Origin: a virus
Strand: one strand, 5' to 3'
Virus record (IMG/VR): IMGVR_UViG_3300028422_001962
Span: 9,413 to 73,412 of that record
DNA: 64,000 nt
Below the pieces are notes generated by a model, which worked only from the letters and a program-made list of their open reading frames with translations, made no database searches and was not told the origin of the DNA. Shown piece by piece: positions 5,895 through 24,478 of this stretch. The translations under genes were made by a program, and so were the position numbers. Position 1 is the stretch's first letter. Each line of letters opens with the position of its first letter.

Positions 5895-5910
5895 ATAATC
5901 CCTCCCAAAC

Positions 5911-6303
5911 CTATGGTTGTTTATCTTCCTTACTGATGTCGTCAAGTACCTTTTTCCAAAAGTCGTCGCCAAGATTTTTCTCATTTGCACGGCGCAGAGC
6001 CTTTCGGACGTGGGGTAATTGTGTGGACATCAAATATTCGGGCAAATCAGGAGCCGCGGTATCCCTTTCTCGCCCCGCAAGGTCGAGCATCTCTTCTTTT
6101 TCATCGGGCGTAAGTTGTAAAACAACTGCAATTTTTTCGAGAATCTGCATTTCTGGCGGGTTTCGCCTGCCTTTGACGATATCCGATAGGTACGACGCCG
6201 TCATGCCCATTGCATCGGCAATGTCCTTTAGTTTGATATCTTCGCCACCGATGCCACGACCTTTTCTCTTGTTGTCGATATATGCGCCAAATTCTCCTGC
6301 CAT
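5911..6303 (-). CDS. XRE family HTH repressor
   Basis: LKDIADAMGMTASYLSDIVKGRRNPP; directly upstream of the ImmA gene. Confidence 0.9.
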   Translation of the reverse strand: MAGEFGAYIDNKRKGRGIGGEDIKLKDIADAMGMTASYLSDIVKGRRNPPEMQILEKIAVVLQLTPDEKEEMLDLAGRERDTAAPDLPEYLMSTQLPHVRKALRRANEKNLGDDFWKKVLDDISKEDKQP

Positions 6304-6342
6304 AGCCTTTCTCCTTTCCGCTTACGGCATCGTTGCCGTACA

Positions 6343-6399
6343 GCATATCAGCAAATTCGCTGATATGCGTATTATATCATGTGCTGAAAAAGATGTCAA
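6343..6399 (-). promoter_or_regulatory. Consensus sigma-A promoter and palindromic operator of the XRE-ImmA operon
   Basis: TTGACA-N17-TATAAT (6399-6371, minus); palindrome GCATATCAGC-N6-GCTGATATGC at 6343-6368; related site at ~5124-5147. Confidence 0.8.
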
Positions 6400-8187: not shown

Positions 8188-8331
8188 TTGCGTTTTACTT
8201 GCTAATCGTGCGTTTCGTTTACAAAACTTGCATTTCACTTACAAATCGTGCATTTGAGATTACAAACTTGCATCTCATTTACAAATGTTGCGTTTCACTT
8301 TTCAAATGCGACATTTCGTTTTACAATTCAG
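8188..8331. repeat. Six degenerate 20-bp tandem units running into the right IR of the IS30
   Basis: Units start at 8188, 8208, 8228, 8248, 8268, 8288; consensus about KTGCRTTTCRYTTACAAA; one more copy at 6495-6514. Confidence 0.85.
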
Positions 8332-8414: not shown

Positions 8415-8443
8415 TTGCAATAATTTGTCGAAAGGGTTATAAT
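8415..8443 (+). promoter_or_regulatory. Sigma-A promoter of the defence operon
   Basis: TTGCAA-N17-TATAAT. Confidence 0.7.
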
Positions 8444-8491: not shown

Positions 8492-8698
8492 ATGGCTATA
8501 AGTTATAAAAGGCTATGGAAACTCCTAATTGATCGTGACCTAAAAAAGAAAGACCTGCCATCTTTGGCAGGTATCAGTTCTGCATCGGTCACAAAATTAG
8601 GAAAAAATGAAAATGTAAATACAGAAATTCTTGAAAAAATATGCCGAGCGTTAGATTGTGACATCTCCGATATTATGGAGATGACTGAAGACCAATAA
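8492..8698 (+). CDS. Cro/C1-type HTH regulator
   Basis: ISYKRLWKLLID..LEKICRALDCDISDIME; similar to 25365-25577. Confidence 0.9.
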   Translation: MAISYKRLWKLLIDRDLKKKDLPSLAGISSASVTKLGKNENVNTEILEKICRALDCDISDIMEMTEDQ

Positions 8699-8712
8699 AG
8701 GAGCTACTTGCT

Positions 8713-11586
8713 ATGCCATATACAGCACATCAAATAAAGTTCTTTGCCGAACAGCTTATGCTGAAACGTCCTCAGCACTCAATTGACGGGCTTGCTTCTG
8801 CTATGTCAGGAGTGAAAGTGGATTTGAACCCGCACCAAGTAGACGCCGCTTTATTTGCTCTGCAGTCGCCACTGTCAAACGGAGTGTTACTTGCGGACGA
8901 AGTTGGGCTTGGGAAAACCATAGAAGCCGGTCTTGTTCTTGCTCAATGCTGGTCGGAGCGCAAGCGGAAAATCCTCTTGATTGTCACTGCCTCGCTCCGC
9001 ACACAATGGAGAGCTGAGCTGGAGGAGAAATTTTTTATTCGTTCTGAAATACTGGAATCAAAGAATTATAACAAGGCGAAGAAAGAGAACCCGTCTTGCA
9101 ACCCGTTTTTAGCGCAGGACGCAGTGGTGATTTGTTCATATAACTTTGCATCGACAAAGATGCAGGATGTTCGGTCGGTAGATTGGGACTTAGTTATTAT
9201 GGATGAGGCGCATAAGCTTCGCAACGTCTATAAGCGAAACAACGTGATGGGCAACAATCTGAAAATTGCTCTCCGTGGGCGGAAAAAACTGCTCCTCACG
9301 GCGACACCATTACAAAACAATTTGATGGAACTGTACGGCCTTGTCAGCATTATTGACGAGCAAGTTTTTGGCGACCCTGATATTTTTCGTGAAGTATATG
9401 TCAACGTGAGTAATATAGAGAGCCGCAACAGGAACCTAAAAGTACGCTTACAGAATTTTTGTAAAAGAACCCTACGCCGACAAGTGGCAGAATATGTGCC
9501 ATATACCAATCGAACGGCTATTTTACAGGAATATACACCAAGCCACGATGAGGAGCAACTGTACTCAGACGTATCTGATTATTTACAACGGGAACGACTT
9601 CACGCTTTTCCGCAAGGACAACGTCAACTCCTGATGTTAGTGGCGCGAAAATTGCTTGCATCATCTTCAATGGCAATTCACGGCACTCTGTCCACCATTA
9701 TTGACCGCCTGAACCTAAAACTAAGTGATTATCAAGCCCAGTTGAAACTGACAGACCTTGATGATTACGATGGCATTGAGGAGTTAATTGACGAGGAATC
9801 GAACGGTGCCGATAACGGTGCTGTGGATGAAATGGCGGCAGATTACGAAGGTATAAGGGCGGAAATTGAGGAACTGAAACAATACGCCGCTCTTGCCGAA
9901 AGAATTACAACCAACGCCAAGGGAGACAATCTTCTGACCGCTCTTAATCGCGGATTTGAAATGAATGAACGCCTTGGTGGTGCAAGAAAAGCAGTAATAT
10001 TTACTGAATCAAAGCGGACGCAGCAGTACCTTATGAATCTGCTTTCCCAAAATGGTTATGATGGACAGATTGTTTTTCTGGACGGATCAAATAACGACCC
10101 AGTATCTACTCGCGTTTATAAGGAATGGCGCGAGCGGCACGAAGACGACGGCAAAATTTCAGGCTCAACAGCAGCGGATAAAAAGTCGGCGATTGTTGAG
10201 GAATTCCGCGACCGCGCTTCAATTCTCATCGGAACAGAAGCTGCTGCCGAGGGAATCAACCTGCAATTTTGCAATATTGTTGTCAACTATGACTTACCGT
10301 GGAATCCTCAGCGCATAGAGCAGCGTATTGGCCGTTGCCACCGTTATGGGCAAAAGAATGATGTTATTGTCATCAACTTTTTAAATCGCGCCAACGCCGC
10401 CGATGAGAGGGTTTTTGAATTACTATCTCAGAAGTTTAGGCTGTTTGATGGTGTGTTCGGTTCGTCGGATGAAGTGCTTGGAGCCATTGAGGATGGCGTG
10501 GATTTTGAAAAGCGTATCCTTGATATTTACCAGTCTTGTCGTGAATCGGATGCAATCAGGGCGGCGTTTGATGCTCTGCAGGAGGAGCTATCCGAACAGA
10601 TAAGTGAAAACATTACTAAGGCGCGGCAGTCTATATTGGAAAATTTCGATGAGGATGTTTTCAAACATCTGAAAGACTGTCACGAGGGGACAAAAGCAGA
10701 ACTCGACAAGTTTTCCCGGTGGCTTTGTAACTTCTTTACTATGTGGGGAGCGGAACGGGTTGAGCCTCTCGACCAATGGCGCTTTGCTTACATAGAAAAT
10801 GGCGAGCGTAAGACTTATAACCTCCGTTGGAAAGACGCAGAAGCACTACATGATGAGTTTTTGCGCCGGGATGGTGAACTTTGCACCAAGTGGATTGCTG
10901 AAGCAATGAATACAAATGCGCCTCCCGTTGCCATACGGTTTAATCATTCAGACTTGCCACAGAAAGACCATATCAGCTTTTTGGACAGCCATCCTACTCT
11001 GAATAACGGCATCATCTCAATCGACAAGCTGACGCATAGGGGTATTGACAATGAGGAGCATCTGATTGTATCTGTTGTCACCAACGATGGTACACTCATT
11101 GATGGCGATGATGCAGGCAATATAATTGACCGTATTATGGAGCTACCGGCCGATATCGTCGGCGAGTGTTCGCCCGAATCGGAAACTCTTATCAGGCGGC
11201 GGCAGGAAGGTATTCAACGGCAAAAGGATGATATCGCCGAACGCAACAAGATGTATTTCTTGGAGCAGGTCGAAAAACTGGACGCTTTCAGTGAAGATTT
11301 AAAAGAAGGATTACAAAAGCAACTGAAAGCCCTGAAAAAGGAAATAGCAGAAAAACGTAAGGATTTTCGAACTTCAAAGGATATCTGCTCTCTTGATGAA
11401 ATGTTGGAGAAACGATCGGCGATTACCGCCTTAGAAGATAAGCGCAAAAAAATGGAGCGGGAAATAAGCCTCGAAGAAGATAGGATTACCCTTGAGAATG
11501 AGGCTTTACAGGAAGATATCCGCACCCGTTTAAACGGCGAAATCGAAACCGAAACGATAATGACTTTCTCGTTCGAGATAGTATAG
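8713..11586 (+). CDS. SNF2-family helicase/ATPase
   Basis: LADEVGLGKT, DEAH, TATP, EGINLQ, QRIGRCHR; C-terminal coiled coil. Confidence 0.92.
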   Translation: MPYTAHQIKFFAEQLMLKRPQHSIDGLASAMSGVKVDLNPHQVDAALFALQSPLSNGVLLADEVGLGKTIEAGLVLAQCWSERKRKILLIVTASLRTQWRAELEEKFFIRSEILESKNYNKAKKENPSCNPFLAQDAVVICSYNFASTKMQDVRSVDWDLVIMDEAHKLRNVYKRNNVMGNNLKIALRGRKKLLLTATPLQNNLMELYGLVSIIDEQVFGDPDIFREVYVNVSNIESRNRNLKVRLQNFCKRTLRRQVAEYVPYTNRTAILQEYTPSHDEEQLYSDVSDYLQRERLHAFPQGQRQLLMLVARKLLASSSMAIHGTLSTIIDRLNLKLSDYQAQLKLTDLDDYDGIEELIDEESNGADNGAVDEMAADYEGIRAEIEELKQYAALAERITTNAKGDNLLTALNRGFEMNERLGGARKAVIFTESKRTQQYLMNLLSQNGYDGQIVFLDGSNNDPVSTRVYKEWRERHEDDGKISGSTAADKKSAIVEEFRDRASILIGTEAAAEGINLQFCNIVVNYDLPWNPQRIEQRIGRCHRYGQKNDVIVINFLNRANAADERVFELLSQKFRLFDGVFGSSDEVLGAIEDGVDFEKRILDIYQSCRESDAIRAAFDALQEELSEQISENITKARQSILENFDEDVFKHLKDCHEGTKAELDKFSRWLCNFFTMWGAERVEPLDQWRFAYIENGERKTYNLRWKDAEALHDEFLRRDGELCTKWIAEAMNTNAPPVAIRFNHSDLPQKDHISFLDSHPTLNNGIISIDKLTHRGIDNEEHLIVSVVTNDGTLIDGDDAGNIIDRIMELPADIVGECSPESETLIRRRQEGIQRQKDDIAERNKMYFLEQVEKLDAFSEDLKEGLQKQLKALKKEIAEKRKDFRTSKDICSLDEMLEKRSAITALEDKRKKMEREISLEEDRITLENEALQEDIRTRLNGEIETETIMTFSFEIV

Positions 11587-11599
11587 GAGGATTTTATAT

Positions 11600-13180
11600 A
11601 TGCAGAAACTTGAGCTCACGTGGATTGGTAAGGGCGATGAGCCCGCTGTCGAACCACGTATACTGCTTCACGATGCTTCAAAGGATTACGGCGACCCCGC
11701 CGCTGATAATATGCTGATCCACGGTGATAACCTGCTCGCGCTGAAAGCCTTGGAGCAGGAATTCGCCGGGCAGGTGAAGTGCATCTATATTGATCCTCCA
11801 TATAACACGGGCAGCGCTTTTGAACATTACAACGACAACTTAGAACACTCCACCTGGCTATCGCTAATGGTTCCGCGCCTGCGTATCCTGCGTAATTTGT
11901 TGAGTGATGACGGTAGTATTTGGATTAGCATTGATGACGAAGAACGCGATTATCTCAAAGTGGTCTGCGATGAAATATTTGGCCGCAATTGCTTCGTGAG
12001 TGCAGTGTGTTGGCGCAATTCTGATAATAGTAACAATAATGCTTTAACATTTTCGATTGACCACAATTATATTTTAGTTTATGGTCGGAATCCCGGATGG
12101 AGGCCGAAGTTTCTTAATGATCCGAGTAAACGAACGCACTTTAAGAATCCCAACAATGACCCGCGGGGCCCATGGTTTGACGGAAATCCTGTTAATAATC
12201 CGGGATTGAGAGTAAATCTCCAGTACAACATCACCACTCCAAACGGGAAAATTATTAAGCACCCACCGAATGGCTGGCGTTGGTCATGGGAAACCATCCA
12301 AGAAAAGATGAAAACAGGTGAAATCCGATTTTCGGAGGATGAAACGCGACTAATAAGGCGAACTTATCTTAATGATATGGAAGGATTGCCACCGTCAACA
12401 TTATGGACGGATTTGGATACGACAGGGCATACTCGTAAAGCAAAATATGAATTAAAAAACTTATTCCCTGAGGTTCCGGTAACCAGCCTGTTCAGTACCC
12501 CGAAGCCAGAACTGTTAATCAATTATGTTCTACAACTGGCAACTAATTCCGGCGACCTCGTTCTTGACTCGTTCCTCGGCTCAGGCACAACCGCCGCAGT
12601 TGCTCACAAGATGGGACGGCGATATATCGGTATCGAACTAGGCGAGCATTGTTATACTCACTGCCTGCCCCGCTTGCAAAAAGTAGTGGACGGCGAACAA
12701 GGCGGCATTTCTAAAGCCGTAGACTGGCAAGGCGGTGGCGGTTTCAAGTTATACGAACTTGCATCCACGCTGATTGTGACGGACAAGCACGGCCAATCTG
12801 TCATTAACGACAAGTATAATGCGCAAATGCTCGTCGCCGCAATCGCCAAACTCAATGGCTACGATTATGCGCCTGATACCGATGTGTTCTGGAAACAGGG
12901 AAAAAGTCAGGCGGGCAGCTTCATCTTCGTCACAACCGAATACCTTACGGCGGCACAGCTTGACGATATCTCCCGCGACCTGCCGGAGTATGAACGTCTG
13001 CTTATTTGCGCCCCGGCATTTGATATTGGTCTTGGCAAACGCTACGAGAACATAAATGTCCGTAAAATTCCGCAGTCGGTTCTCGATAAGTGTGAGTATG
13101 GTGCGGACAACTACAACCTGAATATTGTAAATCCCCCCGAACTGGACGAAGACGAATGGGAGGACGGAGAAGATGCTTAG
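11600..13180 (+). CDS. mod: Type III RM methyltransferase (Mod)
   Basis: IHGDNL, catalytic DPPY, central variable region, DSFLGSGTT. Confidence 0.93.
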   Translation: MQKLELTWIGKGDEPAVEPRILLHDASKDYGDPAADNMLIHGDNLLALKALEQEFAGQVKCIYIDPPYNTGSAFEHYNDNLEHSTWLSLMVPRLRILRNLLSDDGSIWISIDDEERDYLKVVCDEIFGRNCFVSAVCWRNSDNSNNNALTFSIDHNYILVYGRNPGWRPKFLNDPSKRTHFKNPNNDPRGPWFDGNPVNNPGLRVNLQYNITTPNGKIIKHPPNGWRWSWETIQEKMKTGEIRFSEDETRLIRRTYLNDMEGLPPSTLWTDLDTTGHTRKAKYELKNLFPEVPVTSLFSTPKPELLINYVLQLATNSGDLVLDSFLGSGTTAAVAHKMGRRYIGIELGEHCYTHCLPRLQKVVDGEQGGISKAVDWQGGGGFKLYELASTLIVTDKHGQSVINDKYNAQMLVAAIAKLNGYDYAPDTDVFWKQGKSQAGSFIFVTTEYLTAAQLDDISRDLPEYERLLICAPAFDIGLGKRYENINVRKIPQSVLDKCEYGADNYNLNIVNPPELDEDEWEDGEDA

Positions 13181-15920
13181 AGAACCTTATTCGGCGAAAT
13201 CATACTCCTATAACTCAAAATACATTGACAATCGCCTTGCCCTCCGTCCCCCTCAGAAGGAGAGCTTGGAGCGGTTCGCGCGGATTGTGGATATACTCTC
13301 CCTCTCAAAAACACCGAACTTGGATGAGGAACTCATAAAAATCCGTGAACTGTTCCCAACACTCACCAGTTTTGAGCGGGACTTTCCGTCGGTATGCTTC
13401 GCCCTTGCCACGGGCATAGGCAAAACTCGATTGATGGGCGCAATGATTGCCTATCTGCACTACGAGAAAGGTGTCAATAATTATTTTGTGATGGCCCCCA
13501 ACCTCACGATTTATAAGAAGCTGAAAAACGACCTCGGTAACCCGAACAATGAAAAGTACGTGTTTCGAGGTTTAGATAAGTTCGTCAACGCGCCACGCAT
13601 TATCGATGGCGACAATTACGAAGAATTCCGTCAGATGTCGCTGTTTGAAGGCGGCGTTACCATCAACGTCTTTAACATCAGCAAACTGAACTCAGAGAGC
13701 GGACGGATGCGCCGCTTGCAGGAGGTTCTTGGGCAGTCTTATTTTTCGTATTTACAATCCTTGCCCGACCTCTGCATCTTTATGGACGAAAGCCACCACT
13801 ACCACGCCGACAGAGGGTTTGACACCATAAACGAGCTTCACCCAGTCCTTGGTGTGGAACTTACCGCAACACCACAAATTCAAAAAGGCGCACGGAAGAT
13901 CGATTTCAATAACGTGGTGTATGAATACTCTCTTGCTCATGCGCTGAACGACGGGCTTTACGTCAAAGTCCCCGCCGTATTCACTCGCCGGGATTTTCGC
14001 CATGAAGAATATACCCCGCAACAACTTGACCGCGAAAAACTCAACGACGGCATCCGTCTGCACGAAGAAACAAAAAGCAGACTGGATGTGTACGCTCGTA
14101 CCCACGGCAAGTCCATTGTTAAGCCGTTTGTGCTTGTTGTTGCCAAAGATACAACCCACTCTCGGGAAATACGCGAGTATCTCACTTCGGATGCTTTCTT
14201 TCATGGATATTACAAAGATAAGGTATTGGAAATCAACTCGGCACAGCGCGGCTCGGAAAAGGACGAGAACATAGAGCTGCTACTCTCGCTTGAGTTGACC
14301 ACCAATGTAATCGAAATCGTCATTCACGTCAATATGCTCAAGGAGGGCTGGGACGTGACGAACCTCTATACCATTATCCCTCTCCGCGCTTCGGCATCCG
14401 AAACACTCACGGAACAGACCATTGGGAGAGGTTTGCGTTTGCCTTATGGTCAGAGAGCAGGAGTGGATGAGGTTGACAGACTCTCTATCGTCAGTCACGA
14501 CCGTTATCAGGCGATTGTAGACCTTGCTAAAGACCCGAACTCACTTGTCCGTAAGATTTACTACATTGAGGAACAAGAACTTCCCGAAAGCGAAGACGGG
14601 CGCGAAACCGTACCTCTTCCGACAGTTTATGACGCGTTGACCTCCGGCGAGAGCTTCACACAACAGTTGGCGTTTACCCTGCGTGAAACGGCGACGGACG
14701 AATACAAAGCTGAAAAAACGCCCGACCAGACGATGCTTATCGCAAGCATTGTCCAAAGTATAACCGCTAAAACGGTGGTCGAGGTTAACAGGCAGGTTCG
14801 GAATATTAATGCCATTAATGATGAACAAACGCGCAAATGGGTGCATGGCAGTATTGTTACGCAAGCCATACAGCAACTTCCCGAATTTGGGCTAAAAGAA
14901 GAGGACTTAACAGCAGTTGTCACGAAAGCAATCGAAACTTGTGCCCAAGCCCTCACAGAAAACGTCATTCCGATACCGCAGTCAGTCGTTCAGCCCCATA
15001 CCGAAGTTAAGCGTGGATTTTATGACTTCACGCTTGATACGAGCCGTATGCGTTGGCATCCGTCCGACGACACACTCCTCGGCACGGAACTCATGGAGGG
15101 CGGCGAAACCTTTACGCTGGAAACAGGAACAGTTGCATTTGCAAAGATTGATACAGTGGAAAATGAGATTGTCCGACATATTATCGTCCATGATAACGTG
15201 GACTACGCAACTTGTTCAGACCTCATCTATTCACTTATCACAGATGCCAAGCGGCACTTTTTGTCGTACTTGAATGATGAGGAAACGGAAAAAGTCATGC
15301 GCGATCGGCAGCGCACCATCGCTGAAATCATCTACGCGCAGATGAACGAGCATTTTTATAAAGAGGAAGTCAGCTATAGGGCAGCCAATATGCGCCCATT
15401 CACAAGGATTGAACCGAGTTTCGGCGGCAAGTTTAAATCGGATGAGATATATGACTTGCGGACGCCTATGGCGGCATCTGATGTGAAGTCCAAGATATTC
15501 AGCGGATTTAAAAAAGCAGGTCATACGCTGTACAAATTCGACAGTGACACGGAGCGAACTTTTGCAGTCGTGCTGGAGAACGATAATGCCGTTCTTCGTT
15601 GGTTGCGTCCCGCGCCGCGTCAGTTTAACATCTACTGGGGACAAGGCGGCGCGAGCCGTTATGAGCCAGATTTCATTGTTGAGACCGCCGAAACAATTTA
15701 TATGTGCGAACCGAAAGCGAGCAACAAGATGCGAGATGCGGACGTGCTTGAAAAGCAGGAAGCCGCAGAAGAATACTGCCGCGCCGCCAGTGAATTCAAC
15801 ACCGAAAACGGCGGTAAACCGTGGAAGTATGTTCTTATTTCTCACGATGAAATCCGACCGCAGTCGAGTTTTACTTATCTCGCAAAACAAGCTTCGCACG
15901 AGCAGTTATCGATAGAGTAG
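13173..15920 (+). CDS. res: Type III RM endonuclease (Res)
   Basis: LATGIGKT, DESHH, EGWD, QTIGRGLR, C-terminal PDF..EPK nuclease; overlaps mod. Confidence 0.92.
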   Translation: MLREPYSAKSYSYNSKYIDNRLALRPPQKESLERFARIVDILSLSKTPNLDEELIKIRELFPTLTSFERDFPSVCFALATGIGKTRLMGAMIAYLHYEKGVNNYFVMAPNLTIYKKLKNDLGNPNNEKYVFRGLDKFVNAPRIIDGDNYEEFRQMSLFEGGVTINVFNISKLNSESGRMRRLQEVLGQSYFSYLQSLPDLCIFMDESHHYHADRGFDTINELHPVLGVELTATPQIQKGARKIDFNNVVYEYSLAHALNDGLYVKVPAVFTRRDFRHEEYTPQQLDREKLNDGIRLHEETKSRLDVYARTHGKSIVKPFVLVVAKDTTHSREIREYLTSDAFFHGYYKDKVLEINSAQRGSEKDENIELLLSLELTTNVIEIVIHVNMLKEGWDVTNLYTIIPLRASASETLTEQTIGRGLRLPYGQRAGVDEVDRLSIVSHDRYQAIVDLAKDPNSLVRKIYYIEEQELPESEDGRETVPLPTVYDALTSGESFTQQLAFTLRETATDEYKAEKTPDQTMLIASIVQSITAKTVVEVNRQVRNINAINDEQTRKWVHGSIVTQAIQQLPEFGLKEEDLTAVVTKAIETCAQALTENVIPIPQSVVQPHTEVKRGFYDFTLDTSRMRWHPSDDTLLGTELMEGGETFTLETGTVAFAKIDTVENEIVRHIIVHDNVDYATCSDLIYSLITDAKRHFLSYLNDEETEKVMRDRQRTIAEIIYAQMNEHFYKEEVSYRAANMRPFTRIEPSFGGKFKSDEIYDLRTPMAASDVKSKIFSGFKKAGHTLYKFDSDTERTFAVVLENDNAVLRWLRPAPRQFNIYWGQGGASRYEPDFIVETAETIYMCEPKASNKMRDADVLEKQEAAEEYCRAASEFNTENGGKPWKYVLISHDEIRPQSSFTYLAKQASHEQLSIE

Positions 15921-15945
15921 ACACTTCTAAGGAGGGAGTTGCCAC

Positions 15946-17088
15946 ATGAAATTTTTTCACTTATCCGACCTGCATCTCGGTAAGCGTGTCAACGAGTTTT
16001 CCATGCTGGAAGACCAGTGGGACATCCTGCAAAAAATTGTTGTGCTTGCCAAAGAGAATAAACCGCATGCCATCCTCATCGCAGGTGATGTCTACGATAA
16101 AGCTATGCCCATTGTAGAGGCCGTCCAACTATTGGATAGATTTCTTGTTTGGCTCAACGAACTGGGAATTGCGGTGTTTATAGTTTCCGGCAACCACGAC
16201 AATGCTGAGCGTGTGGCGTTCGGCGCGGAATTGTTGAAAAACAGTAACGTGCATATTGTGCAGTCGTATAATGGCAAAATGAATCCTATAACTCTCTCCG
16301 ACAGATATGGCGATATCAATATCTGGATGCTACCGTATCTCAAGCCGTCCCTGGTCCGCAAGCACTTTCCTGACAGGGATATAACTACATACTCGAACGC
16401 CGTATCCGCAGCTTTGAGCAATGCGAATCTTGACACTTCAGTAAGAAATGTGCTGATTGCCCACCAGTTTGTTACCGGGGCAGTTACAAGCGAATCTGAA
16501 GAAATCTCTGTCGGTGGTTCGGAGAATGTGGATGGCTCGGTTTTTGATGGGTTTGATTACGTTGCATTAGGGCATATTCACCGTCCACAGCAGATCGGTC
16601 GAGAAACCCTTCGATACAGCGGAACCCCGCTCAAATATTCGTTTTCGGAAGCAAGCCATACAAAATCTGTGACAGTCGTTGATATGGATGTCAAGGGCAA
16701 GATAAAAATCACTGAATTGCCGCTTGTACCGCTCCGTGATATGCGTGAAGTTCGCGGCACATACAACGAGATTATGAACCGTAACAGCTACCGGGGTACG
16801 AACACGGAGGACTATATCCATATTGTGTTGACAGATGAGCACGATGAGCCGGATGCGATGTCAAAACTGCGAAACGTCTACCCTAACCTGATGCGCTTGG
16901 AGTACGATAACAGACGAACACAGGCAGCGAGTTCTCTCGAAACGGTAGCGTCCACGGAAAAGAAAACGCCATCTCAGTTATTCGGGGAACTGTTCGAAAT
17001 GCAAAACGGACAGCCGATGAGTGAAGAGCAATCAAAATATGTAACAAGCCTATTCAACGAAATCTGGGAGGAGGTGTCGAACTCATGA
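15946..17088 (+). CDS. sbcD: SbcD/Mre11 nuclease
   Basis: SDLHLG, AGDVYD, GNHD, AHQFV, LGHIH, YSGTPLKYSFSE. Confidence 0.93.
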   Translation: MKFFHLSDLHLGKRVNEFSMLEDQWDILQKIVVLAKENKPHAILIAGDVYDKAMPIVEAVQLLDRFLVWLNELGIAVFIVSGNHDNAERVAFGAELLKNSNVHIVQSYNGKMNPITLSDRYGDINIWMLPYLKPSLVRKHFPDRDITTYSNAVSAALSNANLDTSVRNVLIAHQFVTGAVTSESEEISVGGSENVDGSVFDGFDYVALGHIHRPQQIGRETLRYSGTPLKYSFSEASHTKSVTVVDMDVKGKIKITELPLVPLRDMREVRGTYNEIMNRNSYRGTNTEDYIHIVLTDEHDEPDAMSKLRNVYPNLMRLEYDNRRTQAASSLETVASTEKKTPSQLFGELFEMQNGQPMSEEQSKYVTSLFNEIWEEVSNS

Positions 17089-19853
17089 GACCTCTCAAAC
17101 TGACCATGTCTGCCTTTGGCTGTTATGCAGACAAACAGACCGTTGATTTTCAAACGCTTGGCAATGAAGGGCTATACCTCATTACTGGTGATACTGGAGC
17201 GGGAAAAACAACCATATTCGATGCCATTACCTTCGCACTCTACGGGGAAACAAGCGGTGACAACAGGAAAGCAGAAATGCTGCGTAGCAAGTACGCACAA
17301 GAGAATGCAGAAACCTATGTTGAGCTTTCATTCCAATACCATGATAAGGTCTACCTTATCAAACGTAATCCGGCTTATGTGCGGGCAAAGCAACGTGGTG
17401 AAGGCACAACAGAGGAAAAGGCTGATGCCGAACTGCACCTACCAGACGACCGCATTGTGACGAAACTTAGAGAGGTCAACACCAAGGTCGAGGAAATACT
17501 CGGTATCAACCGTGAGCAGTTTGTCCAGATTGCGATGATAGCACAGGGTGAATTTCTGAAAGTCCTTCACGCCAGTACCGAAGACCGAATCGAGATATTC
17601 CGTAAGATTTTTTATACGGACGCCTACAAAACATTTCAAGACAGAGTTAAGAAGGACGCGAACGGACTCGTTGCAGAAATCAAAGAGCAACGGCGCGGTT
17701 ACGACTTTAGCCTCGGTAATGTTCAAGTAGATGCGAACGACGAAGAAAACACGCAAAAACTCTCCGATGCCAAGTCTGGGCTCTTATTGGCGGGTGATGT
17801 CATCGAATGGCTTACACTAATTATTTCTGCCGACGATGAAGCATTCTCCGCAAATGAGAAATTGTTGGAGAAAGTGGGCGTCAAACTGGCTGAAATAAAC
17901 CAGAGGGTCGGGCAAGCCGAGCAGGATAAGAAAGCGCGTGACGCTTTAAAAGCTGCGGAAGACCGTCTCCCTTCTGAAATGGCGGCTCAGAATGAAGCTG
18001 AATCCGTTTTAAACGCGGAAAAAGCTAAACAGCCTGAATACGAGTCCGTAAAAACTCAAATTTCTGAAATAGAGCGGTCGTTGACTAAATATCAGGAACT
18101 GCAAAATCTTATCGATTCGATAAAGTTAAACGAGGAAAAGTTATCTGTCGAAAAGCAAAATGCCGATAACTTACAAAAGAAACAAACCTCCGATACATCT
18201 GCGCTTAAGACCGCAAAAGAGGAACTCAAGTCTTTAGTGGATGCCGAAGTCATAGCCGAAACATTGCGTAGCCAACAAGGAAAGCTGACCACAAAGCAGA
18301 GCAGTATTGGTTCGTTAACCGCTTTGCTCGAAGGTTATAGCAGACTGCTTTCTGAACTCAAAGCGGCACAAGACGATTACACCGAAAAGTCTACAATTGC
18401 AAAGACTAAGCGGGATGGATATGAAACTCTTAACAAGGCGTATCTCGATGAGCAAGCGGGGATATTGGCAGTAGAACTGAAAGATGGACAACCCTGCCCA
18501 GTCTGCGGTTCTACCGAGCATCCTGATCCTGCGGTTTTATCTGTTAAGGCTCCTACAAAGGCGGAACTTGATAAGGCAAAGAAGGCCGCTGAGGCTGCAG
18601 AATCAGAAATGACTACTGCCAGTGGCTTGGCAAGCAACTTGAACGGGCAAAGCGGTACTAAGCGAGACGAAATCATAACCGCTGCAACGACGTTATTGGG
18701 AGAAATCTTGTTCGATAATATCCCGTCGGTTTTGGAGAGTGCGTTAACTGAGGTCAAAACAGGACTTGCGGAAGTCAATGAGAAACTCGCCGAGCAAGAG
18801 AAAAGAATAGCTCGAAAAAAGGAACTTGAAGAAGCGATACCTACTTCCGAGAGTAACCTTATTAAAGTCGGCGAGGCTCTTGGTAAGTCCAAAGAACAAG
18901 TCGCTGCACTGACCACGCAGATTGACGCCGACAGCAAAACAAGGGACAAGCAGGCAGCGGAACTCAAATTTAAGAATGAGGCAGATGCCAAAGCGGAAAT
19001 CACCGCTCTCAGCACCAAAAAGAAAGGCTACGAAGATGCCCTCCAAACCGTCCAGACCGCATATGATACAGCAAAAACGAAAGTGAACGGCACAGCAACG
19101 GAGATACAAACATTGCAAGCACAGCTTGGTGATTCACAACCTTTGGATTTGGATGCACTAAAACAAGAAAAAGGCACTATTGAAAGCACACAGCGTGGAT
19201 TGGGCGAAATCAACCGTGTTGTCGGCACACGAAAGTCTGTCAACCAAACTGCGTTGAACGACATTAACAAAACGGCTAAAGCCATCATGGAGCTCGAAGT
19301 TCGTTACAAGTGGTTGAAAGAAATTTCCGACACAGCAAACGGAGATATTAGCGGCAAAGAAAAAATCAAACTGGAAACCTATATCCAAGCAGCGTACTTC
19401 GACAGGATAATTGCGCGGGCAAATATTCGCCTTCTTCAGATGTCAAATAGCCAGTTCGAGTTAAAGCGGCGAGATGTAAGCGGCAAGCAGGGACAAAGCG
19501 GCTTAGACTTGAATGTCATTGACCACTACAATGGTACAGAACGCGATGCAAAAACGCTCTCAGGTGGTGAGTCGTTCATCGCCTCTCTGTCGCTTGCACT
19601 TGGTCTTTCGGATGAAATACAGAACAATGCTGGAGGCATACGTCTTGATTCGATGTTTGTTGATGAGGGCTTCGATTCATTAGATGATACGAAACTGTCA
19701 CAATCAATACAGGCGTTGATGAGTATATCGCAGACCAATCGCCTTGTTGGGATAATATCACATGTTACTGGGCTTGATGAAAAAATAGGTCGCAAAATCG
19801 TCGTGATCAAAGACCGTACGGGTGGTAGCAGAGCCGAAATACTGGTGGGATAA
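17085..19853 (+). CDS. sbcC: SbcC/Rad50 SMC-like ATPase
   Basis: GDTGAGKT, coiled coils, zinc hook CPVCGS, LSGGE, FVDEGF, IISH. Confidence 0.93.
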   Translation: MRPLKLTMSAFGCYADKQTVDFQTLGNEGLYLITGDTGAGKTTIFDAITFALYGETSGDNRKAEMLRSKYAQENAETYVELSFQYHDKVYLIKRNPAYVRAKQRGEGTTEEKADAELHLPDDRIVTKLREVNTKVEEILGINREQFVQIAMIAQGEFLKVLHASTEDRIEIFRKIFYTDAYKTFQDRVKKDANGLVAEIKEQRRGYDFSLGNVQVDANDEENTQKLSDAKSGLLLAGDVIEWLTLIISADDEAFSANEKLLEKVGVKLAEINQRVGQAEQDKKARDALKAAEDRLPSEMAAQNEAESVLNAEKAKQPEYESVKTQISEIERSLTKYQELQNLIDSIKLNEEKLSVEKQNADNLQKKQTSDTSALKTAKEELKSLVDAEVIAETLRSQQGKLTTKQSSIGSLTALLEGYSRLLSELKAAQDDYTEKSTIAKTKRDGYETLNKAYLDEQAGILAVELKDGQPCPVCGSTEHPDPAVLSVKAPTKAELDKAKKAAEAAESEMTTASGLASNLNGQSGTKRDEIITAATTLLGEILFDNIPSVLESALTEVKTGLAEVNEKLAEQEKRIARKKELEEAIPTSESNLIKVGEALGKSKEQVAALTTQIDADSKTRDKQAAELKFKNEADAKAEITALSTKKKGYEDALQTVQTAYDTAKTKVNGTATEIQTLQAQLGDSQPLDLDALKQEKGTIESTQRGLGEINRVVGTRKSVNQTALNDINKTAKAIMELEVRYKWLKEISDTANGDISGKEKIKLETYIQAAYFDRIIARANIRLLQMSNSQFELKRRDVSGKQGQSGLDLNVIDHYNGTERDAKTLSGGESFIASLSLALGLSDEIQNNAGGIRLDSMFVDEGFDSLDDTKLSQSIQALMSISQTNRLVGIISHVTGLDEKIGRKIVVIKDRTGGSRAEILVG

Positions 19854-19863
19854 GGAGATTTCT

Positions 19864-21189
19864 ATGTTTTACTGGAAAGGCAAGACTGAAAACAATCTGA
19901 CATTGACTGAAGAACTGCTTTCATGTGGCTCAATTAAATCAATTCAAATAGCCACAGCTTTTATCTCCGCCGAAGGTGTTGCAATTGTGCGTCAACTCCT
20001 GGAGAAGTATCAGCTTTCAAAGGAACGCATCTTGCTCTATTTATCCGAGCAATTCTCGTCCGACAAACCGGGGGATTTGCTTGAACAGTTATTTGAAATT
20101 AGCACTGTAAAGGTTTTGTTTGACCAGAGCTTTCACGCCAAGGTGTTCTTGCTTTCCGGAGTAGAAACCAAACTTATTTATGGCTCGTCGAATTTAACGG
20201 CGGGCGGTTTTACCCGAAACATGGAATTTGATTATATTGGAATACCCTCCAAAGAAGAATTAGAGAAAGTCCTTGAATTTTTCAGATATTGCGACAGGCT
20301 TTCAACTGCGGTCAGCAGTGAAGTGATAACTTACTATAAGGAACTGCAACCTGCACTTGATGAGTTAAATCAAACACAGTGGTTTCTAAAAAAACGTCTT
20401 ACTGGTTTTTCTAAAAAAGAAGATCCATTTCGTGAAGATGATTATGATTTGTCAGACAGCTACTTTTCTTTTGAGGACTACGAGACATTTTTTTCACGCA
20501 ACGCTCAAAGTAACGATGCCCAAATCCGCCACCGTAGATTAAGCGTTCAACAAAAAATGCTTGCTGTCCACCAAATGATATACCCTAAAATTAGAAGTCT
20601 TGGTATTGCACATCATAAACGAGAGAAAAATATCACTTCAACCGTCGAACCAAACATATATAACCACCATTCCGTGGGCTGGATTGGCGTTCGGTACGGG
20701 AAATTACCGCATGAGATTGACTGGCTTAACGCTGGACGCGAAAGTGATGACGATGCTTATGGCTTCCAAAAGCATGGTTGCTTACAATTCAGCATCAACA
20801 GTGGTGGGTTTGATATAAATCTGTTTTTAGCAGTTCGAAATGATGCGATAGACCGCATGAAACTCAGTGAGCATCAATTTAAAATGCTGTTTGAACAGCG
20901 CCCGCAGATTGAAACTGAAATGAGAAACCTTGTGGGACACGGCTTTGAATGGCGAATAGAAAATGGGGCAGAACCCTTTCGAGTTGATAACGACCCAGTC
21001 GAAAATTTCTGTGACTGGTTTAAGGTCAATGACTCGGATGGATACGAATCATATTTGATAAAATATTACGAGCCAGGCGATCCGATATTAAAAAGCAAAG
21101 AGAGCATTTCCGCTGAGGTTATTCGTGTCATGACGATGCTCCAACCACTATATGACACTATGGTATGGCGGCCGCTGAAAAAGTCGTAG
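19864..21189 (+). CDS. PLD-family (HKD) nuclease-domain protein with uncharacterised C-terminal domain
   Basis: ATAFIS, FHAKVFL, GSSNLT..GF..NME; ATG 19864 with AAGGAG. Confidence 0.8.
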   Translation: MFYWKGKTENNLTLTEELLSCGSIKSIQIATAFISAEGVAIVRQLLEKYQLSKERILLYLSEQFSSDKPGDLLEQLFEISTVKVLFDQSFHAKVFLLSGVETKLIYGSSNLTAGGFTRNMEFDYIGIPSKEELEKVLEFFRYCDRLSTAVSSEVITYYKELQPALDELNQTQWFLKKRLTGFSKKEDPFREDDYDLSDSYFSFEDYETFFSRNAQSNDAQIRHRRLSVQQKMLAVHQMIYPKIRSLGIAHHKREKNITSTVEPNIYNHHSVGWIGVRYGKLPHEIDWLNAGRESDDDAYGFQKHGCLQFSINSGGFDINLFLAVRNDAIDRMKLSEHQFKMLFEQRPQIETEMRNLVGHGFEWRIENGAEPFRVDNDPVENFCDWFKVNDSDGYESYLIKYYEPGDPILKSKESISAEVIRVMTMLQPLYDTMVWRPLKKS

Positions 21190-21342
21190 GAGAAAGAATC
21201 AAATACCAACATGCGGTAAAAGTATCAACCTATTTTTGTTGGATGGAAAACCGATGGGGTGCATTGCATGCACTCTTGTCATCTGGACTGGTGTAGTGTA
21301 TTGAATTGCATAGGAAACTGACGGACACTGCAGGTTCGGTGT

Positions 21343-21502: not shown

Positions 21503-24478
21503 ATGGAATTCAAAAAGGAAGCCATAGGCAATAACTACTTAGCTTATTTTCCCGTAGTTGATGAGTTTCCAAGTGCAGACGAAGTAGTCTGCACTTGGAA
21601 ACAAAACGTCTTTGATTATGTTGTCGAAACAGAATCGACTAAAGGTTTTCGCGCCGCGCAGTTAGGCGCAATTTTTGCGGTAAAATCCCATTGGACTATT
21701 TCCGAAGCCCCTGTAACTGTTGTTATGCCGACCGGTACAGGAAAAACAGAAACTATGTTTGCAACAATTGTGTCTGAATGCCGTAAACGCACACTTATCG
21801 TTGTTCCCAGTAATTTACTTCGCCAACAGACTGTAGAGAGATGCTTAAAGTTAGAAAGGCTGCGTGAGTTCAACGCAATAAGTGATAAATGCCTTAACCC
21901 AGTTATCGCTTGTCTCAATTCATCTCCGACGAATAAGAATGAACTAAAAAACATTATCGAGAGAAGTAATGTTATTATTTCGACAGCTTCGCTTCTAAGC
22001 GGTTTTACTGACGAATATTTTAATGTCTTGTCTGAACTCTGCGATACATTGATTGTTGACGAAGCGCATCATACTCCTGCAAAATCGTGGCATAGAACAA
22101 AGCTGAAGTTTGCTGGTAGGCTTTGCATCCAGTTTACAGCTACACCATTTCGAGATGATGGGCAAAAAATTGACGGCAAGATAATATATAACTTCCCATT
22201 GTCACTTGCCCAAAAACAAGGCTATTTCAAGCCAATTAACTTTTATCCGATTCTTGAGTTTGACTACGATAAAAAAGATTTAGCCATTGCTAATAAAGCT
22301 GTAGAAATTCTTGAAACTGATTTATCAAATGAATATCCCCATTTGCTCTTAGTTCGCGCGTCAACCAAAAAGCGAGCTGAAGAACTATATAATCTTTACT
22401 GTCAACATTTTGATAAGCACAGTCCAGTTCTTATCGTCAGTGGTCAAAAAGGAAATAAGCAGTCGATTGCCGATGCAAAAAGCGGAAAAGCAAAAATCAT
22501 TGTTTGCGTAGATATGTTTGGAGAGGGCATAGACATTCCTCAATTGAAGATTTGCGCCATTCATGACAAGTATAAATCAATTCCAATAACTATCCAGTTT
22601 ATCGGGCGTTTTGCACGCTCGCAAGGCAATCTTGGTAATGCTTCGGTCGTAGCTAATATTGCAGATGATGATATCGAAGATGCCTTGCAGGAATTGTATT
22701 CACAAGACGCGGATTGGAGCGAACTCCTAAAGAAAATTTCTGAAGATAAAATAAGCAAAGAGGAGCGGTTGCAAGAGTTAGTCAGAGACTTTACGGGAAA
22801 AGAAGAAATTCCTATTTCACAAATTCGACCCAAAGTCAGTATGTTTATGTATCATACTGACGACAAAAATTGGAATTGGGGGAACTGGGATTCAGTTTTC
22901 AATCCCGAACACAGTCATTGCTGTGTTAACCAAAAGGCTAAGATATTAATTATCACGGAACGCGATATAAGTTCTGTTGACTGGACAACCAGTAAAGACA
23001 TAGTTGACCTTACTTGGCAATTACACATTCTATACTGGAATGAAAAGAAGAAAGTCTTTTTCATCAACACTACCGACAAAGGATTAGCTGACCGTTTTGC
23101 CTCAGCAATATTTACTTCCAAGAAACGAAAAGCAGATGAAGATTTATTCAGATGCTTATCAGGTGTCAACCGACTAAAACTTGCAACCGTAGGTCTGAAG
23201 CCTAAGAACGGAGGGCATATCAGGTATCAAATGTATGCCGGTATCGATGTAGAAGCTGGACTCACTGAAGCACAAAAAGTGAATGTGAGAAAGTCAAATC
23301 TATTCGGTGTAGGGTATGAAGACGGCAAAGATATTAGTATTGGGTGTTCTTATAAAGGTACTGTTTGGGCAAAGTGGGTAGAGACATTGGATTACTGGAT
23401 TGAATGGTGTAATAAGGTGGCCGACAAAATTCTGGACAGCAGTATTAGCGTAGAGGAAATCTTAAAAGGCGCACTAATCCAAACCGTTGTCACGAGTCGA
23501 CCTGACGCAGTACCATATGGAATTGACTTCCCTATCGAATTATATTTGAGCAGCTCATATTACTTAAAAGCTGGGGTCATGGATGACTATCTGATAAACT
23601 TCGATATTGCATTAACAGTAGAAGATAACTCGTCACCACTAACCTTTTCGGTGTCAAATGGTCAAATGAGCGAGGAATTTACTCTTGAAGTGTCAGATAA
23701 ATATAGTGACGGTTTTATGGTGTCGCACAAAAGCGGGGATTTAATATTGGTAAGCGACAGGAAGAAGGAACGGTATTTATCGGAATATTTCTGCGAAAAC
23801 CCGCCTGAAATACGGTTTTGCGACCAGTCATCGCTTGATGGAAATCTATTAACGCGAGCAAAAATTCATGATACAAAATTTAGCAATGGCAACATCACTG
23901 TGCTTAACTGGGATGGGGTTGACATAAAGAAGGAATCACAATGGCAGACTGGCATAGGTGTAAAAGCAAATGATAGTATCCAATATAAAGTGATTTCTAT
24001 GCTGAAATCAACGAATAAATATGCCGTTATATTTGATGATGATGACAAGGGCGAAATCGCCGATGTTGTTGCAATAATTGAAGAGCCAACAGCAATCAGG
24101 TTTGAATTGTACCATTGCAAGTTTTCTGGCGGAGGTGAAGCAGGCTTCCGAGTTAAGGATTTGTATGAGGTTTGCGGACAAGCGGAGAAGTGTGTGAACT
24201 GGTATCCTCGCATAGACAAACTTATAGACAGGTTGATTGAGAGAGAAAGCAAACGACTGTCAAAGCCGCAAGGTACTCGCTTCGAAGTAGGTGATGGCAA
24301 GACACTTCAATCGCTCAAAAAGAAACTTAAATTTTTTAGACCTGAATTTAGTGTATACATTGTACAGCCGGGTGTTGACAGCAAAAGAATAACACAACCT
24401 ATGCACGATGTACTATGTAGTGCTTCATCTTATCTTAAAGAAACATATGCCATACAGTTGCAGCTGATTTGTTCTTGA
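21503..24478 (+). CDS. SF2 (ResIII-like) helicase fused to a C-terminal PD-(D/E)XK-like nuclease
   Basis: MPTGTGKT, DEAH, TATP, EGIDIP, QFIGRFAR; C-terminal DDDKGEIADVV..LYHCK. Confidence 0.82.
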   Translation: MEFKKEAIGNNYLAYFPVVDEFPSADEVVCTWKQNVFDYVVETESTKGFRAAQLGAIFAVKSHWTISEAPVTVVMPTGTGKTETMFATIVSECRKRTLIVVPSNLLRQQTVERCLKLERLREFNAISDKCLNPVIACLNSSPTNKNELKNIIERSNVIISTASLLSGFTDEYFNVLSELCDTLIVDEAHHTPAKSWHRTKLKFAGRLCIQFTATPFRDDGQKIDGKIIYNFPLSLAQKQGYFKPINFYPILEFDYDKKDLAIANKAVEILETDLSNEYPHLLLVRASTKKRAEELYNLYCQHFDKHSPVLIVSGQKGNKQSIADAKSGKAKIIVCVDMFGEGIDIPQLKICAIHDKYKSIPITIQFIGRFARSQGNLGNASVVANIADDDIEDALQELYSQDADWSELLKKISEDKISKEERLQELVRDFTGKEEIPISQIRPKVSMFMYHTDDKNWNWGNWDSVFNPEHSHCCVNQKAKILIITERDISSVDWTTSKDIVDLTWQLHILYWNEKKKVFFINTTDKGLADRFASAIFTSKKRKADEDLFRCLSGVNRLKLATVGLKPKNGGHIRYQMYAGIDVEAGLTEAQKVNVRKSNLFGVGYEDGKDISIGCSYKGTVWAKWVETLDYWIEWCNKVADKILDSSISVEEILKGALIQTVVTSRPDAVPYGIDFPIELYLSSSYYLKAGVMDDYLINFDIALTVEDNSSPLTFSVSNGQMSEEFTLEVSDKYSDGFMVSHKSGDLILVSDRKKERYLSEYFCENPPEIRFCDQSSLDGNLLTRAKIHDTKFSNGNITVLNWDGVDIKKESQWQTGIGVKANDSIQYKVISMLKSTNKYAVIFDDDDKGEIADVVAIIEEPTAIRFELYHCKFSGGGEAGFRVKDLYEVCGQAEKCVNWYPRIDKLIDRLIERESKRLSKPQGTRFEVGDGKTLQSLKKKLKFFRPEFSVYIVQPGVDSKRITQPMHDVLCSASSYLKETYAIQLQLICS

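Follow-up and report, generated by a model that had tools for sequence, protein, structure and literature searches.

An SbcD-SbcC gene pair carried by one clade of mobile SNF2-type III restriction-modification operons

Restriction-modification (R-M) systems of type III with an extra helicase-like ATPase encoded 5′ of mod have been described in Eco86II and BspHIV, in which the ATPase is dispensable for methylation and was missing once the enzyme had been partly purified (Murray et al. 2021, PMC8259958). EcoR22I has been reported as a type III system with a drmD-related SNF2 protein, and mod and res alone restrict (Silas et al., bioRxiv 10.1101/2023.04.06.535777). The word 'SNF2' occurs 0 times in a large 2025 review of R-M systems. 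Here we analyse an operon of this kind on a 64,000-nucleotide stretch of viral DNA (IMG/VR record IMGVR_UViG_3300028422_001962, positions 9,413 to 73,412; hereafter the window, to whose positions coordinates refer unless another locus is named), in which genes for an SNF2 ATPase, Mod and Res are followed by sbcD, sbcC and a gene for a PLD-family nuclease. An earlier note, made from the letters of the window, had read these genes as a candidate extended type III defence system. We find that the operon is built of three layers, namely an SNF2-type III R-M system, the SbcDC pair and a slot for changing cargo, and is not a single seven-part system.

The seven open reading frames (ORFs) are co-oriented on the plus strand and separated by 14, 13, -8, 25, -4 and 10 nt, an arrangement and spacing that the earlier note had described and that the ORF coordinates bear out; the domain names given by Pfam, PADLOC and NCBIfam likewise agree with the gene names used there. 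The first gene (8492..8698) encodes a 68-aa helix-turn-helix (HTH) protein of the Cro/C1 type (Pfam HTH_26, 69.9 bits), the probable controller of the operon. It is followed by genes for an SNF2-family ATPase with a DrmD-like motor (8713..11586; Pfam SNF2-rel_dom, 120 bits, and Helicase_C), for the type III Mod, a beta-class amino-methyltransferase (11600..13180; N6_N4_Mtase; PADLOC MTase_III, 552 bits), and for the type III Res, which combines a superfamily 2 (SF2) ATPase with a C-terminal PD-(D/E)xK nuclease (13173..15920; ResIII; PADLOC REase_III, 561 bits). The next two genes encode an intact 380-aa SbcD, an Mre11-type nuclease (15946..17088; Metallophos and SbcD_C; NCBIfam TIGR00619), and an intact 922-aa SbcC, a Rad50-type ABC ATPase with a CxxC zinc hook (17085..19853; Pfam AAA_23 and SbcC_Walker_B). 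The last encodes a 441-aa PLD-family (HKD) nuclease, variable cargo after sbcC (19864..21189; Pfam PLDc_2, 26.9 bits, and a fold match). mod and res overlap by 8 nt, and the start of sbcC overlaps the stop of sbcD by 4 nt. The PLD ORF had been listed from a GTG at 19822; we prefer the ATG at 19864, the start that the earlier note had used, because AAGGAG lies at 19852-19857, overlapping the sbcC stop, and three homologues start at the same MFYW/MYYW. We hold this anatomy, and the history reconstructed below, with high confidence.

The first layer comprises HTH, SNF2, Mod and Res, with a divergent CapH/CapP-like pair (HTH and M78 peptidase, described below) on its upstream side. A metagenome scan anchored on an alignment of nine Res proteins recovered 80 loci with Res identities from 97% to 42%. 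Among these, 51 loci reach 3 kb or more upstream, and in 48 of them tblastn places SNF2 upstream of mod, down to 42% Res identity (L047, L069 and L082 lack it); HTH copies 72-99% identical to that of the window precede SNF2 in related loci. The same core was found on a Salmonella IncFIB plasmid, where IS256 and Abi genes lie between HTH-SNF2 and MTase-helicase, and on an E. coli chromosome, where genes for an AAA ATPase and an S8 peptidase separate SNF2 from MTase-helicase; the relatives seen in E. coli and Salmonella carry no annotation beyond 'SNF2-related protein', and of 5426 complete E. coli genomes 258 hold such DNA relatives, with 60-80% identity over part of the gene. These loci uphold the proposal that SNF2 belongs with Mod-Res. 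HTH-SNF2-Mod-Res is a widespread, already published variant of type III R-M with a DrmD-like SNF2 gene 5′ of mod. As side observations, the gap between SNF2 and mod in related loci holds genes for OLD, RhuM, Abi_C, SIR2, a U49 peptidase or a second Mod.

The individual proteins fit this assignment. The SNF2 gene stops 13 nt before mod, which places the ATPase directly 5′ of mod; the protein matches helicase families only and shows no nuclease motif, its C-terminal ~290 aa are without a family match, and its closest solved protein is RapA. mod lies directly 5′ of res in one operon, the layout of type III systems. In the Mod of the window and nine relatives DPPY at position 65 precedes FxGSG at position 325, the beta-class order (catalytic DPPY/F before AdoMet FxGxG, as defined in PMC8259958). 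Among ten cassette Mods residues ~115-300 are 13-37% identical, as compared with 76-95% in the flanks, and such a hypervariable centre between conserved flanks is the signature of swapped target-recognition domains. Res carries TGIGKT, DESHH and the C-terminal nuclease motif YEPDF...CEPK, all invariant in nine sequences and as expected of a type III Res; among solved proteins only EcoP15I Res matches it (E 1.3e-6).

The second layer, SbcDC, has a far narrower distribution. A scan for SbcD, with one genome per species, gave 18 loci. All eight with an SbcD at least 69% identical to that of the window (L001-L007, L015) show Mod-Res-SbcD-SbcC in the window's order, seven of them with a full SNF2 gene; L007 retains only the last 154 SNF2 residues, beside serine-recombinase genes. 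Nine loci whose SbcD is 53-64% identical hold sbcDC alone, and in L008, L011, L014 and L016 the pair lies among housekeeping genes (acetate kinase, mraW, Mur ligase, EF-P, tyrosyl-tRNA synthetase, tryptophan synthase). L018 holds only a 104-residue SbcD fragment, adjoining an ISL3 transposase gene. Fifty loci of the Res-anchored set have 1.2 kb or more of downstream sequence; SbcD follows res in four of them (L020, L022, L023, L034), and also in L021, a partial case cut by the contig end; SNF2-Mod-Res stands without SbcCD in 46 of the 50. The order Mod-Res-SbcD-SbcC thus recurs in 13 loci besides the window, which puts the arrangement above chance. Many of these cassette loci are near-copies, and they reduce to about seven lineages: the window; L001/L003/L020/L034; L002; L004; L005/L006/L007/L021/L022; L015; and L023.

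In a tree of 68 Res sequences, one clade of 15 rows (SH-aLRT 100) holds all 14 SbcDC loci together with L024, which lies inside the clade without SbcDC; there an integrase gene of opposite orientation comes after res. On this tree the label 'has SbcDC' needs two changes, compared with a mean of 13.1 for shuffled labels, and 0 of 500 shuffles gave a value as low, a contrast inflated by the near-copies among the loci. With all SbcDC loci in one Res clade, a single gain and a single loss account for the pattern most simply. The identity of SbcD and SbcC falls in step with that of Res, Res identities of 97, 88 and 78% being paralleled by SbcD identities of 91, 78 and 69%. The earlier note had proposed a comparison with housekeeping sbcCD as a check. 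The nearest non-cassette SbcCD are chromosomal with housekeeping neighbours, and in the SbcD tree chromosomal Gracilibacteraceae genes (L008, L009) fall within or next to the cassette group; an approximately unbiased (AU) test on SbcD did not reject a single cassette clade (p 0.2), and the SbcC tree is compatible with one origin. Taken together, the trees and the distribution are most simply explained by a single capture of SbcDC into the Res clade, after which nearly the whole clade would have kept it. The notion of an sbcCD that is mobile along with SNF2-Mod-Res therefore holds within one Res clade (14 of 15 loci) and fails in the 46 of 50 loci that have SNF2-Mod-Res without SbcCD.

A DNA query with res and sbcD against annotated phage and plasmid collections matched 24 plasmids in res only and three unannotated gut phage records in short stretches of sbcD, and the junction was matched by none. 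A full-text literature search, covering top-ranked results, returned no description of SbcCD inside a type III or SNF2 operon; as far as that search shows, the fixed SbcDC insert is undescribed, and the core SNF2-Mod-Res has already been reported. A further lead, 'AsaH-IetAS' (bioRxiv 10.64898/2025.12.08.692795), has no bearing on SbcCD. Two observations concern chromosomal sbcDC. In L010 (777-6210) the pair lies near Wadjet-like jetC/jetD with one opposite-strand gene between. In L012 (6901-7842) and L016 (8951-9979), two Oscillospirales-type genomes, genes for WYL-domain regulators lie directly upstream of sbcD, and may point to damage-responsive control of sbcDC.

The cassette pair looks like a working SbcCD. 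SbcD scores 164.8 bits against NCBIfam TIGR00619 sbcd (cut-off 77.65) and 82.8 bits against Pfam SbcD_C, which identifies it as SbcD, and the motifs DLH, GDxYD, GNHD and GHxH, which we take to be the Mre11 phosphoesterase motifs of SbcD, are present in 13 of 13 cassette copies. Walker A, CPVC (the CxxC hook), LSGGE and DEGF, at positions 35, 471, 825 and 860 of SbcC, are found in all 12 full-length cassette copies. SbcC scores below the curated NCBIfam cut-offs (sbcc, 252 versus 478 bits; sbcc_Staph, 315 versus 920 bits), and its chromosomal relatives in Clostridia are equally short, at 917-923 aa. Where synonymous divergence (Ks) was unsaturated, the ratio of nonsynonymous to synonymous divergence (Ka/Ks) was 0.065-0.068 for sbcD, 0.09-0.13 for sbcC, 0.04-0.05 for res and SNF2, and 0.16 for PLD. 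Judged by these ratios, sbcDC is under purifying selection, and together with the retained motifs this speaks for a functional pair.

For most hosts the cassette copy is also the only canonical one. In the window's genome, a metagenome bin that is 91% complete and comprises 497 contigs, the cassette SbcD is the only protein above the TIGR00619 cut-off, the second match scoring 54.7 bits. It is likewise the sole one above the cut-off in four of the five other cassette-bearing genomes, G004 having a second copy at 134 bits. Among 31 genomes (G000 and 30 relatives), five have an SbcD above the cut-off, that of G000 being the cassette copy. Most of the 31 have only a phosphoesterase of ~420-430 aa that scores 43-60 bits and matches no more than the first ~100 positions of the SbcD model (for example G000 C421:19766-20077); this protein may be a divergent end-processing nuclease that substitutes for canonical SbcD.

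The third layer is the slot after sbcC. DNA homology between cassette loci stops at ~19840 of the window, the end of sbcC, except in L002 (to 21310), L023 and L006. In 13 loci the slot holds six different occupants, and it has changed at least six times. The PLD gene follows sbcC in the window, L002 and L023; a 166-aa ORF with GmrSD in L001; a 170-aa ORF with an ABC ATPase in L020 and L034; an Mrr-type PDC-S02 gene with OLD in L003; a Schlafen/AlbA_2 protein gene in L004; and a DUF4357 protein gene in L005, L007 and L022. L006 has a PLD stump (the first 65 nt) followed by a PDC-M30A-like gene, and the contigs of L015 and L021 end too early to show the gene after sbcC. Orthologous DUF4357 genes (PADLOC PDC-S14) lie directly after res in L029 and L041 and after PLD in L002, and in the window a decayed 5′ remnant (33-40 codons) of a DUF4357/PDC-S14-type gene follows PLD on the plus strand (21203..21334; tblastn with the DUF4357 proteins of L002, L029 and L041, 54-67% identity over 28-40 residues). 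Older cargo therefore lies behind SbcDC, whether PLD is present or absent. Sister clades of similar divergence hold Gabija (L030), QatA (L031), PDC-M46A/B (L036, L037), DUF4357 and other genes in the slot after res. As separate observations, the B protein of PDC-M46A/B (L036 12969-15436; L037 11831-14298) is a short LmuB-like SMC ATPase, so that the post-res slot also holds a Rad50-like module of another kind, and in L043 (13893-17123) a 1076-aa protein encoded downstream of res has a weak match to eukaryotic-type RNA-dependent RNA polymerase (Pfam PF05183, E 1.1e-7).

The PLD protein itself lies at the border of its family by score (Pfam PLDc_2, 26.9 bits with a cut-off of 27), and the assignment is backed by its fold. 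An AlphaFold model built with four sequences was of moderate quality (pLDDT 67.1, pTM 0.47); in Foldseek its N-terminal domain matched SauUSI (E 1.9e-6), Zucchini (1.2e-4), NgoAVII (5.6e-4), Nuc (3.9e-3) and BfiI (4.2e-3) over ~140-160 residues each, and H91, K93 and G107-S108-S109-N110 are invariant in four homologues. The model is thus consistent with a single domain of the HKD-type PLD nuclease fold; the C-terminal half has no family assigned. PLD is present in three of the 13 cassette loci with sequence after sbcC (window, L002, L023), beside the L006 remnant. Across 401 genomes of the phylum it turns up in three, one of them the window's own, the other two matches being partial. A full-length relative (46% identity) is found in a viral contig or prophage that has serine recombinases and an HNH gene next to it and lacks sbcDC. 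The PLD nuclease is therefore swappable cargo, which would act on its own.

These distributions bear directly on whether the seven genes together make up a single extended type III machine in the manner of DISARM, with SNF2 in the place of DrmD, PLD in that of DrmC and SbcCD as an integral part. The tight, partly overlapping spacing speaks for such a machine, as do the closeness of SNF2 to DrmD models (PADLOC DrmD PDLC02619, 673 bits) and the occurrence of PLD after sbcC in members of three subclades and as the L006 remnant, so that its association may be early. However, PLD is absent from 10 of the 13 cassette loci, is rare and stands alone in a prophage, and it resembles DrmC only weakly (E 9.2e-5, 20 bits). 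SNF2 scores 678 bits against NCBIfam DISARM_DrmD_b, for which the cut-off is 950, and covers model positions 23-656 of 868 only, that is, the motor part, so it does not qualify as an equivalog of DrmD. No DrmA or DrmB was found by PADLOC among the 15 proteins encoded from 5184 to 30404; the DrmA model matched only the SNF2 motor (135 bits, compared with 673 for DrmD) and, at 20 bits, 52 residues of a 991-aa helicase encoded downstream. Membership of DISARM, tried on these grounds, was rejected. The locus does resemble class 1 DISARM (DrmD, DrmMI, DrmA, DrmB, DrmC) in having an SNF2 motor, best matched by DrmD models, beside an adenine/cytosine amino-methyltransferase gene and a PLD-family protein at the end; it differs in lacking DrmA and DrmB, in having a type III Res, and in that the 441-aa PLD protein is only weakly DrmC-like and is not conserved with the operon. 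The idea of a single seven-gene system also fails on the 46 of 50 loci that hold the trio without SbcCD. Independent assortment of sbcCD and PLD from SNF2-Mod-Res, which the earlier note had named in advance, together with unchanged protection after their deletion, as what would speak against its reading, is largely what we see, with SbcDC nonetheless fixed in one Res clade. We consider a seven-part machine very improbable, and by distribution across the compared sequences it is largely refuted.

We propose instead that SbcCD processes the DNA ends made by restriction, which we regard as a real possibility that stops somewhat short of an even chance. From established knowledge of type III enzymes, Mod, whose variable recognition domain would set the asymmetric target site, would methylate that site on one strand and so protect the host, and Mod-Res would cut unmethylated incoming DNA after ATP-dependent communication between two sites. 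SbcCD, made from the same transcript, would then bind the ends left by the Res cut, including ends occupied by protein, and would nick and resect them, so that a single repairable cut would end in the irreversible loss of the invading DNA; SbcCD may also attack phage ends capped by a hairpin or a protein directly. In this way the cassette would bring its own end-processing nuclease into hosts that mostly lack canonical sbcCD, and the PLD nuclease would act independently. SbcCD has been reported to cleave blocked ends and hairpins (PMC6265447), and type III enzymes to turn over inefficiently after cleavage, with product inhibition by the cut DNA (PMC3413136); co-expressed SbcCD could thus clear and resect these ends and render restriction irreversible. 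In addition, SbcDC has been kept down to 78% Res identity and saturated Ks while the next gene changed at least six times, which favours more than a chance passenger.

Several observations weigh against this proposal. Res retains its own nuclease motif, the trio is found without SbcD in 46 of 50 loci, and in print mod and res restrict by themselves (bioRxiv 10.1101/2023.04.06.535777) and the purified enzyme lacks the ATPase (PMC8259958). The alignment of SbcD and SbcC with chromosomal relatives shows no cassette-specific indels, so nothing marks a new interface. L024 has lost SbcDC inside the clade, and in L023 codon 103 of sbcC is an in-frame stop. When the window is compared with L002, Ks drops along the operon from 1.19 (SNF2) to 0.24 (PLD), a gradient indicating that parts of the operon have separate recent histories and that related cassettes recombine. 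The position after res is a hotspot of a known type for stand-alone defence genes, and SbcDC may therefore be an independent passenger. Finally, the cassette hosts are labelled as Bacillota, Synergistota, Caldisericota, Actinomycetota and one archaeal bin, some of these labels being probable binning errors; several come from metagenome bins and may be wrong. The broader claim, that an intact SbcCD has been domesticated as the fixed effector arm of a mobile SNF2-type III system, an early stage of repair machinery becoming immunity, is put forward as tentative and on the improbable side. Such an arm would convert a single restriction cut, or a hairpin- or protein-capped phage end, into destruction of the invader, and the exaptation of SbcCD into Lamassu would become experimentally approachable.

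If SbcDC were instead an independent defence passenger, it would protect without the type III enzyme, for example by destroying phage or plasmid DNA with hairpin, palindromic or protein-capped ends. This is in keeping with the recognised stand-alone defence genes (Gabija, OLD, QatA, GmrSD) that fill the post-res and SNF2-mod slots in related loci, with the self-sufficiency of the SbcCD complex and the lack of special features in the cassette version, with the need of phage N15 for a dedicated protein, TelN, to shield its hairpin ends from SbcCD (PMC12624138), and with the argued descent of Lamassu from SbcCD (PMC12663957). We nevertheless think it quite unlikely, since other passengers of these slots turn over between close relatives but SbcDC persisted to 78% Res identity; PADLOC, moreover, lists no unmodified SbcCD among defence systems, its best matches being LmuB for SbcC (65 bits) and an unnamed effector for SbcD (28 bits). 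Rather doubtful, too, is a role as repair cargo, in which SbcDC would serve the host or the element by dealing with hairpins, broken forks or self-inflicted type III breaks on entry into an unmethylated genome, and would be kept because most hosts lack sbcCD. The closest relatives are indeed housekeeping chromosomal sbcDC of Clostridia, the proteins are unmodified, the cassette copy is the sole canonical SbcD in five of the six host genomes examined, and the element carries replication genes of its own (polA, SSB, DUF2800) at 1-3453. Yet sbcDC lies inside the restriction operon, after res and before further defence cargo, 12 kb from that replication module, and it is unseen in 46 other SNF2-Mod-Res loci that face the same establishment problem.

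The earlier note had placed the seven genes behind one promoter. A sigma-70-like candidate, TTGCAA-17-TATAAT, does lie on the plus strand at 8415..8443, 49 nt 5′ of the HTH start, as a consensus match only (10 of 12 positions). Promoter-like sites in the region number 34, compared with 29.9 +/- 5.9 in shuffled sequence, and some lie inside the operon; since they are no commoner than in shuffles and are partly internal, a single promoter and transcript is no more than plausible. The metatranscriptome run X18 yielded five contigs, all short (169-270 nt), that are identical to stretches of SNF2, res, PLD and, in two cases, sbcC, and two runs guessed to be RNA contained relatives, including one 1385-nt contig that crosses the sbcD-sbcC junction at ~93% identity. 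Because DNA can occur in such libraries and contigs prove no transcript, these speak neither for nor against co-transcription. In the DNA run X3 the region is represented piecewise, with identities of 99% or above, and the interval between the end of PLD and the start of the downstream helicase gene is among the parts covered.

The locus is a defence island on an integrated mobile element, and the earlier reading is upheld in so far as the operon is a mobile cassette for defence based on type III R-M. With a GC content of 0.35-0.48, the window forms a low-GC island adjoining DNA of GC 0.55, and this flank carries the phage-like replication genes at 1-3453 (for a family A polymerase, polA, an Enc34-type single-stranded DNA-binding protein, SSB, and DUF2800). 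No tRNA that could mark an integration site was found anywhere in the window. Divergent from the operon, on the minus strand, is the gene of an M78 (ImmA/IrrE, CapP-like) peptidase, a probable regulator (5184..5990; Pfam Peptidase_M78, 31 bits; PADLOC capP, E 2.8e-8), whose true start is probably downstream of the listed GTG. Upstream of it on the same strand lies the gene of a 130-aa XRE-type HTH protein, a CapH/ImmR-like partner with weak matches (5911..6303; PADLOC HTH_VI, E 2e-6; capH, E 2e-4), whose L005 homologue contains Pfam HTH_3. Eleven loci have relatives of the M78 gene, full-length or nearly so, upstream of the cassette, two of them (L028, L041) lacking SbcDC, and L003 has only a 41-residue piece there. 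The HTH and M78 pair is a candidate DNA-damage-responsive switch for the operon. A plus-strand ORF overlapping the pair (5774-6427) is probably spurious.

Between this pair and the operon lies an IS30-family transposase gene on the plus strand (6756..8045; NCBIfam transpos_IS30, 107 bits, cut-off 80), which had no tblastn match in 98 other loci. Since a contig of DNA run X3 departs from the window upstream of 8332 and the transposase gene is missing from related loci, it is a recent insertion, which stands outside the system. About four tandem copies of a 20-nt repeat (TTACAAAACTTGCATTTCAC-like; Tandem Repeats Finder, period 20 and 40), which may be an end of the insertion sequence or an operator, occupy 8188..8300, after the IS30 gene and before the operon promoter.

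Downstream of the operon, a 313-nt spacer is followed by the gene of the 991-aa SF2 helicase (21503..24478, plus strand; Pfam ResIII/DEAD/Helicase_C), of which the C-terminal ~600 aa are without a family match. This gene is absent from all other cassette loci, and homology between the window and L002 ends at ~21310; it is a separate cassette, outside the operon. A structured RNA or retron in the spacer was considered and rejected, as Rfam is empty there and the spacer carries the DUF4357 stump instead. The sole Rfam match in the window is the pemK RNA motif at 55997-56077 (60 bits), between a sigma-70 region-4 gene and serine-recombinase genes. Further downstream lie an SPFH/zinc-ribbon gene, a PDC-S06 ATPase gene, type I R-M genes, EVE-McrB/McrC and a macro-domain gene, and after these a WYL regulator gene, a second HTH/M78 pair and three serine-recombinase genes. 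Within this stretch, the genes at 33981-47010 run in one direction and encode the PDC-S06 ABC ATPase (716 bits), the type I R-M proteins (hsdM, hsdS, a 133-aa ORF and hsdR), and an EVE-domain McrB-like AAA_5 protein with McrC. The macro-domain protein (344 aa) and a 438-aa protein with no family assigned are encoded at 47036-49380, and the pair recurs (350 and 442 aa) after GmrSD in L001 (16405-18779), which suggests a two-gene mobile cassette.

If SbcCD does work with Res, the operon would represent a restriction system that carries its own post-cleavage end processor and does not rely on RecBCD/AddAB or SbcCD of the host. It would also be a natural case of an intact housekeeping complex of the Mre11-Rad50 type recruited into a mobile immune operon, the step that a 2025 study places at the origin of Lamassu (PMC12663957). 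If SbcCD proves uncoupled from Res, the locus still shows nested uptake of cargo by SNF2-type III operons, with a repair complex carried into lineages without it.

Among described systems, the operon is closest in layout to Eco86II, BspHIV and EcoR22I. It shares with them the order ATPase-mod-res, a beta-class Mod, a Res with SF2 ATPase and C-terminal PD-(D/E)xK nuclease, a nuclease-free ATPase, and a mobile and widespread occurrence; unlike in these systems, sbcDC is fixed after res in one clade, the passages describing them in PMC8259958 and bioRxiv 10.1101/2023.04.06.535777 mentioning neither SbcCD nor post-res genes. The SbcDC pair resembles the chromosomal SbcCD of Clostridia (L008, L011, L016) in gene order, overlapping stop and start, motifs, lengths (380 and 922 aa) and the absence of indels, with identities of 53-64% for SbcD and 35-57% for SbcC. 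It differs from them in lying inside a restriction operon on a mobile island, in occurring in several phyla by their labels, and in being the sole canonical copy in most hosts. Like Lamassu (LmuA/B/C), the locus has a Rad50-type CxxC ATPase in a defence context, with the weak LmuB match noted above; unlike Lamassu, it has an SbcD with the full Mre11 nuclease and C-terminal domain, a full-length SbcC and no LmuA-type effector. The cassette pair is plain SbcCD and not Lamassu. Lastly, the operon is similar to other defence operons with nested passengers, a pattern of nested cargo that has been named for Hma (PMC11232893), in having fixed insertion slots between and after the core genes with varied defence genes inside. 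It departs from them in that this passenger is a repair complex of the housekeeping type, retained far longer than its neighbours.

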